Origin: Lysinibacillus capsici
GTDB taxonomy: Bacteria; Bacillota; Bacilli; Bacillales_A; Planococcaceae
DNA: 40,000 nt
Assembly (NCBI RefSeq): GCF_003367505.1
Contig: NZ_PXXX01000022.1
Coordinates: 17,625 to 57,624, forward strand
Reading direction: 5' to 3'
This document shows positions 24,948 through 28,311 of this stretch, one piece after another. Both the position numbers and the translations under genes were made by a program. The number at the start of each line of letters is the position of its first letter. Position 1 is the first letter of the stretch. The notes beneath the pieces were generated by a model. It was not told the origin of the DNA. It ran no database searches and worked only from the letters and a program-made list of their open reading frames with translations.

Positions 24948-25121
24948 ATGGCGGGTGGCGAAGCGTTTTTGCTACACCGCATATGGCAAGATAAACATGT
25001 ACTGCCTCATGAAATTTACACTCTAGATAGACGTTATAAGAATTTCGTTTACGCATCAGAGTTACTTGTAATTGAGGAAGAAGAAAAGGCGGAAAAAGAA
25101 CGTCAGAAAGGAGGAAAATAA
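24948..25121 (+). CDS. Chaperone -1 frame extension (or small XkzB-like ORF)
   Basis: 57 codons open in the -1 frame relative to 24553-24945, ending 1 nt before the TMP start. Confidence 0.55.
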   Translation: MAGGEAFLLHRIWQDKHVLPHEIYTLDRRYKNFVYASELLVIEEEEKAEKERQKGGK

Positions 25122-25715
25122 TTGGCTGTAAATTTGACAGCTGTGTTTCGTCTACGGGATCAAGGTTCTTCGCGCTTACGACGAATCACGGATATGATGA
25201 ATCGAATGAACAGAGCAGGACGTACAGCGAGTGAGGGCATATCGAGAGTACAAACAGCAACTAATCGTCTAGGAAGTACTGTCTCCACAACATCTAATCG
25301 TATGAATGGATTTGCGGCTAGTGTAAGTCGTTTGCACGTCGGATCGAATGGACTGAGTGCGTCTTTCGGTGGGTTACAAAGCACTTTAATTGGACTCGCT
25401 AGCGCATATATGACTGTACAAGGAGCAGCGAAAGCGTTTGATGCAACAATCGGAGCTGCGGCACGTTACGAGCAATCAGAGGTTGCAGTTAAAGCAATAT
25501 TTAATGACCCGAAAAAGTCAGATGCTTATTTGAAGATGGTTGATAAGATGGCGATAGACAGTCCGTTGCTTAATAGTGGAGATATGCTAAAGTCGTCTAA
25601 AACGCTTGTAGCAATGACAAAAGACGTCGGGGATTTAGGTAAAGCATGGTCAATAATTGAACGTCTGATGGTTCTTGATCCTACGCAAGGAACTGACGGA
25701 GCAGCATTTGCCCTT
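25122..25715 (+). CDS. Tape measure protein, exon 1 of 3
   Basis: TTG start 6 nt after SD aaaggagga. The ORF runs into a stop only after the predicted 5' splice site (U25715 paired with G25722 in P1). Confidence 0.8.
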
Positions 25716-26009
25716 AATTAAGGGGGCAGTAAAAGTGGGTTATATGCTGGAACGAACCTTAGAGCCTAACGTACCAAAGTGTAAAAATCGTTAGGATTGG
25801 TCAATCAGCAGGGAAGGCGACAACCAAGCCACCCTCAACGACTATCGGAATATCCGACTATTATATAGGTGACTATATAATAGAACCCCACCGTGTATAT
25901 CGTGAGATATGCTAATGATATAGTCTGTTCTTTACGTGAAAGCGTAAAGAGTGTAGCAGAAATGACTACACCCTAACTTTAGTGAGTTAGAGTAACAAAA
26001 GGCAAAGAG
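25716..26009 (+). ncRNA. Group I intron (ORF-less) in the tape measure gene
   Basis: P1 is gccctt/gggggc with a U-G wobble at the splice site. Q-like AATCAGCAGGG pairs with upstream TGCTG. R-like CTCAACGACTAT and S-like GATATAGTC form a 6-bp P7. Hairpins carry GNRA loops (GTGA, GAAA). The terminal G is at 26009. Confidence 0.85.
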
Positions 26010-27758
26010 ATGTGGCAAGGAGACGCACTTTCGATGGTTGAGCGTTTTGGATTGAATAAAGGTGAGCTAAACGACATTAAAAAAATGGCAATTCCAGAAC
26101 AAATAGCGGAAATTAATAAAATGCTTAATAAAATGGGTATCACCCAGGAAACTGTAAATGCAATGGGCGAAACTACACTCGGCTATTGGGCGCAGATTCA
26201 AGAACGAGTCGGTAAGTTTTTACGGCAAGTTGGTAATCTCGGTAACTCTAAACTTGGTGAGACACTAGGAAAAATCGTTGAAGCCTTCGATAATATCGAC
26301 CTAGACGGCATGGCAAAAAAGTTAGACGCCAAGCTCGCAGGATTAGTCGATAATGCAATCGCTTTTGGAAAGTTTGTCTGGAAATGGCGAGAGCCAATCG
26401 CTTATATTGCAGGAGCACTTACTGCAGCAATGGGCGCATTTGCCATTGTAGGCGTCATTGCAGCGTTAGCAAATCCAGTTACGTTAATCGCTGCAGGAAT
26501 AGCCGCAGCCGCAGTCGGTTTCAAGGCGCTCTATGATAATAGTAAGGTTTTCAGAGGGTTTATAAACGGTATAAGAAATGCTGTAAAAACGGTTTCAAGG
26601 ATATTTGAGTCTATGTTCATACTAATTAAAGGTGGCTTCAAGGATTATGGTAAAGGACGAAAAATTTTAGAAAATTTAGGACTGGAAGAAAAACAAATAA
26701 AAACAGTTATCCGATTTGCTTATGGCATTAAAGGCGCATTTGATAAGGTGAAAGCTGTTTTCAAAAGTATTTCGTTTATCTTTTCAGGACAACATAAAGC
26801 ATCTATCGACATACTAAAAAGTGTAGGATTTTCTGATGAAAAGATTACTAGTATACGTAAATTCGGAAATAGCCTAAAATCAGCTTTTGACACAGTAGGA
26901 AACATTTTCGGTGGTGTAGGTTCTATATTGTCAGGTGAGGGTTCAGCAGACTTAATAGCTACATTAGGGCTGTCTCCCGAAGTTGCTTCCGTAGTAGACA
27001 GTGTTATCAATAAAATTACATCTAAGATAAAATCACTGTGGAAAGCATTTAAAATGAATGGAGTCAGTGGACTCGTCGATGCAATTTACGGAAAAGGTAC
27101 ATTTGAAGCGATTAAAACGAAATTTGAAGAAGTCAAAGCATATATAGCCGAAAAAGTGACGCAATTTAAAGGTGTATTTGATCGTCTAAAAGAAGCGTTC
27201 TCTAAAGCGTGGACTACTATTTCTGACATCATCTCAAATGTGTGGTCGATTATTGAGCCGTATTTGAGTGGCTTTTGGAACATTTTACAGGTCATTGGGG
27301 ATATCGCAATGAAGGTTTTTGACAACATCATCGCTCCAGCAATCTCGTTTCTAGTTCAACTATTTTCAACGCTGTGGTCAATCGCGAAGCCTGTCCTTGA
27401 ATTATTAGGAATCGCATGGGAGGCGCTCTCAGCAATCATTAAATGGGCATGGGACAACGTGTTGGCTCCGTTAGTTGACTTCATTTTAACTGGCGTTAAA
27501 AACGCGTTAGAAGGATTTTCAGGAGCACTATCTATCGTTCAAGGATGGTTCGAAACACTTAGTGGTTGGATTTCGACTGCAAAGGGACATGTAAAGGACT
27601 TTATCGATTCAATTTCTAATGTTAAATTACCTGGTTGGATTACAAAGGGAATCAGCGCAGGAATAAACTTTGCCGGTAATTTTATTGGTGTTGGGAATGG
27701 GAAGGGTGAGTCTCCGAAATCAAATTATCATGGATTAGATTATGTGCCGTATGACGGT
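26010..27758 (+). CDS. Tape measure protein, exon 2 of 3
   Basis: It continues the TMP sequence (WQGDALSMVERFGL), has a central hydrophobic Ala/Gly-rich segment, and ends at ...LDYVPYDG. Confidence 0.8.
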
Positions 27759-28110
27759 TATTGTATAGCCGCTTAATAGAGAGATCTATTTCGAATAATC
27801 AACCAAAATCGGTAAAAGCTAAGTTGTGAAATCTAATTAACCGAAATTTTACAATATGCTAATACCGAGGTAAGCGAGAACATCACTCGCCACCGTAACG
27901 CATAGGGGTTGAGCGATATGAGAGCAAAAATATCCCCACGAGTGGTTGACACCTTAACGTTAATTTAATGTAGGTGAAAATGTATGCTGAGCCGGGTACG
28001 AATAAGAAATTAGTAAGCGCCTATCGATAAGATATGGTGCTTTTTGACGTACCGTAATGCGAGGAAACTCCCGGAAGTAGAGGATAAAAAGCCTTTACGA
28101 TAACAAACTG
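27759..28110 (+). ncRNA. Second group I-like intron (ORF-less) in the tape measure gene
   Basis: P1 pairs exon CGGU with GCCG (27768-27771), with U27758-G27768 at the splice site. Intron UAU/AUA continues the stem. The 3' exon begins UAU, allowing P10 with the same AUA. S-like AAGATATGGTGC can pair with CACCGT. The terminal G is at 28110. Confidence 0.7.
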
Positions 28111-28311
28111 TATTCGGCACGACTACACAAAGGCGAACGCGTTTTAACTGCGCGAGAAAATCGTGATTATTCAGACAGTAACAGCGGTGGTCCAGGCAGT
28201 GGTGTTTTAATCACTGGTAACTCGTTTACAGTACGTGAAGAAGCCGACATTGAGAAAATTGCGTACGGTATTGCAAAACTAATCGAAAAGGAGCGTGTTC
28301 AGATTGGCTAA
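28111..28311 (+). CDS. Tape measure protein, exon 3 of 3
   Basis: It encodes YSARLHKGERVLTARENRDY..., the conserved TMP C-terminal motif that normally follows DYVPYDG. Confidence 0.75.
   Translation, partial: YSARLHKGERVLTARENRDYSDSNSGGPGSGVLITGNSFTVREEADIEKIAYGIAKLIEKERVQIG

Follow-up and report, generated by a model that had tools for sequence, protein, structure and literature searches.

The classical subgroup IA introns of bacteriophages are those of the T4 td and nrdB genes, the SPO1 polymerase gene and Twort orf142. The described systems that lie closest to the one reported here are the group I introns TMP-IVS1, TMP-IVS2, TMP-IVS3a and TMP-IVS3b, which are found in tape-measure genes of Bacillus cereus-group prophages (Tourasse & Kolsto 2008, PMC2504315). 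In that survey up to two group I introns occur per tape-measure gene; they are typed as IA1 or IA2, most of them are without endonuclease genes, and they occupy conserved stretches, with related cores being fitted to their sites through P1. The same study also refers to a tape-measure intron in Lactobacillus phage JCL1032. A further tail-gene example is the endonuclease-less 265-bp group I intron in a minor tail gene of mycobacteriophages BAKA and Optimus, the splicing of which was shown by RT-PCR and reported to be efficient (Pope et al., PMC3706429).

Here we analyse a 40,000-nucleotide stretch of Lysinibacillus capsici DNA (the window), which contains a tape-measure gene with two interruptions. 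All coordinates refer to this window, and all features lie on the plus strand unless stated otherwise. We conclude with high confidence that the second interruption, at 27759-28110 (intron 2), is a structurally intact subgroup IA-type group I intron that breaks the most conserved C-terminal motif of the tape-measure gene, between PYDG and Y. It resembles the TMP-IVS introns in being a subgroup IA group I intron within a conserved stretch of a prophage tape-measure gene, but its host is an XkdO-like gene of about 850 aa rather than a lambda01-like gene of more than 1200 aa, and its site lies in the C-terminal PYDG/Y motif; sequence kinship with the TMP-IVS introns would run only via the Bacillus thuringiensis phage BMBtp13. 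Like the BAKA/Optimus intron it is short, lies in a late tail gene and encodes no endonuclease; the mycobacteriophage intron has an actinobacterial host, lies in another gene, belongs to an unrelated lineage and is known to splice from RT-PCR, where splicing of intron 2 is predicted from sequence. The PYDG/Y site is previously unreported for group I introns, whereas the kind of element is already known and the presence of two self-splicing introns in one tail gene is a situation that has been described before (PMC2504315).

The host gene is the tape measure of a PBSX/XkdO-like contractile-tail module with the gene order sheath, tube, XkdN-like chaperone plus a 57-aa downstream ORF, split gene, LysM protein and YqbQ-like protein. 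The spliced protein matches PHROG tape-measure families with E values of 9e-26 to 1e-7, and single matched stretches cross the junctions. No Pfam tape-measure domain was found in the gene at threshold; the homologue in Sporosarcina phage Lietuvens carries a tape-measure annotation. Exon 1 (25122..25714) has an uncertain start, either TTG 25122 or GTG 25143, the latter being that of the gene caller, and has U25714 as its last base. Exon 2 (26003..27758) ends in ...GLDYVPYDG at U27758, and exon 3 (28111..28311) comprises 66 codons and a stop, its end overlapping the LysM gene, which begins at 28295. The mature product has 849 residues if translated from TTG 25122 or 842 if translated from GTG 25143, and the tryptic peptides predicted for the spliced protein are SNYHGLDYVPYDGYSAR and LMVLDPTQGTDGAAFALK / EMWQGDALSMVER.

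In the unspliced sequence the ORF 26010-27776 (+) reads ...NYHGLDYVPYDG / ...SNYHGLDYVPYDG and then YCIAA-stop, so that unspliced mRNA would stop five codons into intron 2 and its product would be missing the last 66 residues. The conserved continuation lies 352 nt downstream, where 28111-28311 translates as YSARLHKGERVLTARE...VQIG-stop in a frame that differs from that of exon 2 (352 mod 3 = 1). The interval has the G+C content of the exon, 39%, and contains 10, 13 and 8 stops across the three frames, in line with the initial annotation, which had described a displaced continuation and stops in all frames. Excision of 27759-28110 puts ...HGLDYVPYDG onto YSARLHKGERVLT and restores frame and protein exactly.

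The motif across this junction is unbroken in 131 homologous tape-measure loci. It is read through without a break in Brevibacillus phage MRSA107 (YHGLDYVPRDGYTARLHKGERVLTA) and Sporosarcina phage Lietuvens (YHGQDRVPYDGYLSRLHRGEKILT). When one genome per species was scanned, a contiguous GLDYVPYDGY.A.LHKGE.VLT-like sequence was present in 52 of 57 related loci, with Lysinibacillus supplying the closest tape-measure homologues (66-74% identity). Among viral contigs a scan recovered 80 loci, of which 79 are contiguous at the site and one is cut by the contig end. The similarity extends to DNA, as the empty sites of two loci (L191 and L193), CCATATGACGGT|TATTCGGCGCG, match the ligated exons CCGTATGACGGT|TATTCGGCACG at that level. 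The predicted ligated junction is GACGGU|UAUUCG, or ...CCGTATGACGGT|TATTCGGCACGA. Both intron 2 and exon 3 open with UAUU, so the junction could formally slide; no neighbouring shift ends the intron in G while keeping both the frame and the length of the homologues. We therefore place the boundaries at 27758/28110, the only pair with which the 5' site is preceded by U, the intron closes in G and the length of the homologues is kept; these are also the U27758 and G28110 given by the initial annotation.

The fold of the intron begins with a P1 helix of 7 bp (27755..27771), in which exon CGGU (27755-58) and intron UAU (27759-61) pair with AUA (27765-67) and GCCG (27768-71) around a UGU loop. All of its pairs are canonical, the wobble pair U27758.G27768 sits at the 5' splice site, and an alignment to the Rfam group I model RF00028 gives an identical P1; the helix thus agrees with the initial proposal, including the U-G pair and the 3-nt loop. 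Comparable P1 helices with a U.G pair were read by eye in four family members (L001, L002, L016 and L114). The AUA at 27765-67 could also pair with UAU of exon 3 (28111-13) as a possible P10, and this earlier suggestion holds as a pairing of sequences. P1 is followed by a P2 hairpin (27775..27790; AAUAGA/UCUAUU) with a GAGA tetraloop of the GNRA type, and GNRA-capped hairpins were seen by eye at this place in homologues.

Pairing of helices P3 to P9.2 was counted on an alignment, A1, of the window and 24 compact relatives (25 sequences). P3 joins UCAACCA (27799-27805) to UGGUUGA (27943-27949), is 97.7% paired and has compensatory changes in all seven of its pairs. P4 (27809-14 with 27863-68) and P5 (27817-19 with 27858-60) are 95.1% paired, with five covarying pairs, and enclose a long P5a (27823-32 with 27846-55) that is specific to the window and made of canonical pairs. 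P6 consists of G27869-C27894 and G27870-C27893 (100% paired), and P6a, 27874-78 with 27886-90, is 91% paired with covariation in 5/5 pairs. The P7 helix pairs 27898 and 27900-04 with 27983-88; its 5' strand is A[C]GCAUA, with C27899 bulged, and it is 100% paired in the 25 sequences, with AU to GC covariation and its reverse at two pairs (in 10 and 12 sequences). The pair G27900-C27987, next to the bulge, is invariant in all 25, is flanked by pairs that covary between AU and GC, and is the putative guanosine-binding pair. P7.1, with an internal hairpin, occupies 27905..27936 (27905-09 with 27932-36; 99.2% paired, 5/5 pairs covarying), and the P8 hairpin occupies 27950..27976 (CACCU 27950-54 with AGGUG 27972-76; 92.8% paired, 5/5 covarying).

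The true S element is made up of J8/7 and the 3' strand of P7 (27977..27988), which read AAAAUG and then UAUGCU and align with the canonical GAAGAUAUAGUCUGAAC of one relative (L006). The conserved equivalents of the R and S elements are UAACGCAUAG at 27896-27905 and GAAAAUGUAUGCUGA at 27976-27990, where L006 has the textbook form. This differs from the initial annotation, in which P7 had been built from CACCGU (27891-96) and AUGGUG (28034-39) with an "S-like" AAGAUAUGGUGC at 28029-40; that stretch falls inside an insert at 28001-28047 which no homologue has, and this P7 is replaced by the one above.

The P9 domain spans 27992..28074. Within it P9 itself pairs 27992-94 with 28072-74 (100% paired), and P9a pairs 27995-28000 with 28048-53 and carries the 47-nt insert at 28001-28047, which folds into its own hairpin, is specific to the window and is absent from all homologues in A1. 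The long-range helices CCGGG/CCCGG and GGUACG/CGUACC noticed earlier do exist, as P9 and P9a respectively. A GAG-GAAA-CUC hairpin with a GAAA cap (28061-70) completes the domain, and three relatives (L001, L096 and L007) show the same three-way P9 layout with different sequences. The P9.2 hairpin (28077..28098; 28077-83 with 28092-98) is formed by GUAGAGG/CCUUUAC with the loop AUAAAAAG, and the intron ends in the 3' tail GAUAACAAACUG (28099..28110) with terminal G28110. Every helix in the window, including P1, P2, P5a, P9a and P10, consists of canonical pairs.

Michel and Westhof, in 1990, reportedly distinguished subgroup IA by extra P7.1/P7.1a or P7.1/P7.2 helices between the 5' strand of P7 and the 3' strand of P3, and intron 2 has a P7.1 domain between P7 and P3. 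Its extras are one compound P7.1 with an inner hairpin, together with P9 and P9.2, an arrangement that may resemble IA1. Features common to intron 2, RF00028 and the classical IA introns are the P1-P10 architecture, a pseudoknot of P3 with P7, a bulged nucleotide beside the guanosine-binding pair, a J8/7 that leads into P7, and GNRA loops capping P2 and P9; the P7 of intron 2 reads GCAUA/UAUGC where the consensus is GACUA/UAGUC.

On A1, 96.3% of cells are paired, compared with 33-41% when the partners are slid by one to three columns, a control in which real pairing is favoured because the fold was itself worked out on the window and its relatives. Compensatory changes occur at 39 of the 52 pairs, and none of 500 shuffles equalled the observed value on any of five measures. 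The relatives were gathered via the 3' motif, so some columns are fixed by construction, including the inner pairs of P9.2, for which A1 gives 100% pairing and three covarying pairs. We also built a covariance model, R1, from 20 relatives, excluding the window; it has 233 positions, and P7 was left unpaired in it because of the pseudoknot. The whole of R1 (positions 1-233 of 233) aligns with the window at 27795-28111, scoring 168.8 bits with an E value of 6e-52, and the model's one further notable match in the window is to the 3' part of intron 1, at 15.6 bits.

With RF00028, the general Rfam model, intron 2 scores 28.9 bits, where the gathering score is 50; the E value is about 1e-4 when 2.9 kb are searched. 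RF00028 agrees on P1-P8, but the model is exhausted once the long P9 domain is reached. At gathering thresholds Rfam has no match in the 40-kb window, and both introns appear below the cut-off when thresholds are relaxed. In ten homologous phage loci RF00028 missed the family members and found only an unrelated intron, and since homologous introns are missed too, the sub-threshold score reflects the coverage of the model. The Infernal scan suggested as a check in the initial annotation thus aligns the intron over P1-P8 but stays under the gathering score, and a scan of this kind alone would not have confirmed intron 2. What bears out the initial reading of 27759-28110 as a group I intron and as the second interruption of the gene is the combination of the junction in 131 loci, the covarying core and the R1 score.

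The first interruption (intron 1) is likewise a group I intron, at 25715..26002, with a P1 in which UGCCCU (25709-14) pairs with GGGGCA and with a terminal G26002; RF00028 scores it at 47.3 bits (E 2.8e-10), below the gathering score of 50. The closest homologue over this junction, L136, is 84% identical locally and unbroken (AAFALKEMWQGD / DGAAFALKEMWQGD). Only the combination of U25714 and G26002 yields CT|C AAA GAG ATG (L-K-E-M) and hence ...FAL-KE-MWQG as in L136, and we therefore set intron 1 to 25715-26002; U25714 falls in a U.G pair of the 6-bp P1, and the predicted junction is ...GCCCT|CAAAGAGATGTGG (FAL-KE-MW). The FAL/MWQG junction proposed earlier has to be replaced by this one, and the spliced product given as about 847 aa becomes 849, intron 1 having been mis-bounded. 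The two introns had also been called unrelated. They do belong to different lineages, and intron 1 has two hairpins where intron 2 has one compound P7.1 domain, but both are of the subgroup IA type, they share the same layout of P9, P9.x and a UAACAAA..G tail, and R1 weakly matches the 3' part of intron 1 at 15.6 bits, so that the word was too strong.

The family to which intron 2 belongs is common in phages of Gram-positive bacteria and widespread in Firmicutes phages. A blastn search of the 352 nt against phage genomes matched 28 records, and in 12 of 12 loci inspected the match lay between the halves of a split gene or the record was unannotated. Unannotated introns of the family, each lying where a gene is split in two, are found in tape-measure-like genes of Staphylococcus phages 6ec and PT1-1, Arcanobacterium phage TPWB06, Caldibacillus phage CBP1, B. 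thuringiensis phage BMBtp13, C. perfringens phi13O and C. botulinum c-st, while that of Alicyclobacillus phage MMB025 sits in a DNA polymerase gene. The introns of these eight phages have in common with intron 2 the core, the covarying helices and a near-identical 3' end, GGAUAAAAAGCCUUUACGAUAAC..G, given as GGAUAAAAAGCC...GAUAAC by R1; the insertion site and P1 differ for each. In several of them, loops contain ORFs for HNH or other endonucleases, in contrast to intron 2, whose identity to the compact relatives in A1 does not exceed 76% and whose P5a and P9a inserts are peculiar to it. The last ~37 nt of intron 2 are 95-100% identical in many relatives, and the pattern GGATAAAAAGCCTNTNNGATAAC matches at least 120 IMG/VR contigs. 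Segments of 3.4 kb and 25 kb from the window, compared with phage genomes for near-identity, matched over the last ~40 nt of the intron only, so that the source phage is absent from that collection; an exact look-up of the protein gave one match, a Logan contig. A 3' end that is the sole similarity to phages at the DNA level in 25 kb is what is expected of a horizontally moving element.

Given this fold, splicing would follow the standard two-step, guanosine-initiated transesterification. P1 would arise from pairing of the guide AUAGCCG with CGGU of the exon and the opening bases of the intron, which sets U27758.G27768 at the point of cleavage. A free guanosine bound at the P7 pair G27900-C27987 would attack after U27758. 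G28110 would then take over the same site, P10 (AUA with exon UAU) would align exon 3, and ligation of the exons would give GACGGU|UAUUCG. Removal of introns 1 and 2 would yield the 849-aa tape-measure protein. Catalysis by intron 2 is a prediction from its intact core, no feature of the sequence speaks against activity, and tail assembly would depend on splicing.

The longest ORFs within intron 2 are 22 aa on the plus strand and 39 and 36 aa on the minus strand, and none is a homing endonuclease gene; for this reason the intron is probably immobile now, or reliant on an enzyme supplied in trans. It is probably also a rare, secondary insertion, because a search of more than 120 members of the family, and of 137 homologous loci (131 of which cover the site uninterrupted), showed no other intron at PYDG/Y. 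The site shares CGGU with the tape-measure site UUCGGU|ACAAUG of a subset of family members (L001, L091 and L121), which hints at ectopic insertion driven by the guide sequence; we give this low weight, since intron 2 is nearest to the 6ec/TPWB06-type copy and not to the members that share CGGU. That the element is a recent ectopic colonist, lacking an endonuclease and guided by CGGU/GCCG, which arrived by reverse splicing or illegitimate trans-endonuclease repair and not by homing, is in our view unlikely; if true, the window would show transposition of a group I intron inside a single gene family, as caught in nature. Intragenic transposition from the TMWEDQG tape-measure site gained no support, the closest sequence in A1 being the 6ec/TPWB06-type intron, at 76%, and not the members at TMWEDQG.

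The same lack of an endonuclease gene, together with the unoccupied PYDG/Y site in all other loci examined and the unique P5a and P9a inserts, which could in principle slow folding, would also fit a decayed, splicing-dead relic in a defective prophage or tailocin remnant, with a protein that ends ...PYDGYCIAA. The core pairs are however intact, including the G-binding pair and bulge of P7, the U.G pair, the terminal G and P10, and the R1 match is full-length at 168.8 bits with no truncation. Exon 3 retains an intact 66-codon frame that is ~59% identical to the MRSA107 homologue, which would be unexpected if it had long been untranslated, and the inserts lie in peripheral loops, where relatives vary or hold whole endonuclease genes. 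We regard decay of this kind as distinctly improbable. An intron that splices conditionally, being protein-dependent or deliberately inefficient and so tuning the ratio of full-length to truncated protein, receives a slightly lower estimate from us and is very improbable. Unspliced mRNA would indeed give a defined product, ...PYDG plus five residues, and the P9a insert is a stable hairpin followed by UUUUU, but that hairpin was not flagged by a terminator scan, nothing in the sequence requires such control when the core is complete and the GNRA loops L2 and L9 are present, and related tail-gene introns are reported to splice efficiently (PMC3706429).

Least credible of all, to the point that we scarcely entertain it, is that there is no intron and that the locus holds two genes with a spacer or other insertion between them, or one gene whose gap is crossed by translational recoding. 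The GenBank records of CBP1, BMBtp13, 6ec, phi13O and c-st do list the pieces of their genes as separate CDSs. Against this, the halves of an invariant motif flank the gap and are contiguous in 131 loci, the supposed spacer folds as a covarying group I core, and a gap of 352 nt in which each frame has 8-13 stops greatly exceeds any known ribosomal bypass. The exon-3 frame contains no ATG, GTG or TTG start giving an ORF of at least 40 aa, which speaks against 28111-28311 being a separate small gene, the outcome that the initial annotation had named as evidence against an intron. The reading of 27759-28110 as an intact subgroup IA-type intron stands, its boundaries, fold, family membership and intact core pairs being shown by the sequence comparisons.

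For this tape measure the consequence is that what look like three ORFs form a single gene of 849 codons with three exons. Intron 2 leaves the understanding of how group I introns work unchanged, and it adds a new insertion site to the habit of these introns of occupying conserved phage structural genes. In many deposited phage genomes tape-measure or polymerase genes are split by introns of this family, with the pieces annotated as separate proteins. The family is missed by the Rfam group I model, and a family-specific model would correct many of these records.

The site occupied by intron 2 of the tape-measure gene lies within a C-terminal motif of the encoded protein, GLDYVPYDGY.A.LHKGE.VLT, which is near-invariant across 131 of the homologous tape-measure loci (among L134-L270) and in the window is divided between 27735-27758 and 28111-28150. 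Their sources are Firmicutes as well as MAGs carrying labels such as Burkholderiales, Chloroflexota and Treponema.

The final 37 or so nucleotides of intron 2 (28074-28110) comprise P9.2 and a GAUAACAAA.UG tail, a segment that phages of Staphylococcus, Clostridium, Clostridioides and Alicyclobacillus (intron-family loci L001-L133) share at 95-100% identity. It is also the sole DNA-level match to deposited phages in the 25 kb of the window that was searched. Within the intron-2 family this 3' segment is far more conserved than the catalytic core. The only public contig with an identical exon-2 ORF, contig 97677 of Logan SRR34878078, terminates about 4 nt short of the 3' end of intron 2. This points to an assembly that broke off at the conserved tail of the intron, perhaps because the sample contains several intron-family copies. 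Specific to the window is a 47-nt insert in the P9a loop (28001-28047), which is predicted to fold as a long hairpin (AGCGCCUAUC...GAUAUGGUGCU); with the UUUUU after it, this hairpin resembles a terminator. It went unflagged in a simple terminator scan, because the rules of that scan do not cover a loop and stem of this kind.

For intron 1, the initial annotation placed the junction at FAL/MWQG (the slash marking the insertion site); this has to be corrected, as the homologous locus L136 reads FALKEMWQGD across the region corresponding to 25709-26010. The combination of U25714 and G26002 is the only one that gives this reading together with a U in the P1 U.G pair, which places intron 1 at 25715-26002, and the spliced tape-measure protein predicted from the sequence is 849 aa. 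The start of the gene is ambiguous (25122-25145): TTG 25122 is immediately 3' of the stop of a 57-aa ORF (24948-25121), while GTG 25143 is the start picked by the gene caller.

In deposited phage genomes, tape-measure or polymerase genes split by an intron are annotated with each half as a CDS of its own, as in CBP1, phi13O, BMBtp13, 6ec, c-st and MMB025 (L001, L006, L007, L010, L012 and L005 respectively). The Rfam group I intron model RF00028 does not detect the intron-2 family at E<0.01, and the introns in these genomes have therefore been left unannotated.

An uninterrupted PYDG/Y site is found in the tape-measure gene of the viral contig L218, where the intron-family 3' motif lies upstream, at about 755 of the fetched locus; this position would be a candidate further insertion site of the family. 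The intron-2 family members found in tape-measure genes of the CBP1/BMBtp13 type are inserted at ...IFG/TMWEDQG (L001 2400-2740, L007 2300-2560), only about 4 nt from the site of intron 1 of the window at FAL/KEMWQGD; intron 1 (25709-26010 region) belongs to a different lineage from the CBP1/BMBtp13 introns. The conserved MW motif at this position appears to be a hot spot at which introns insert.
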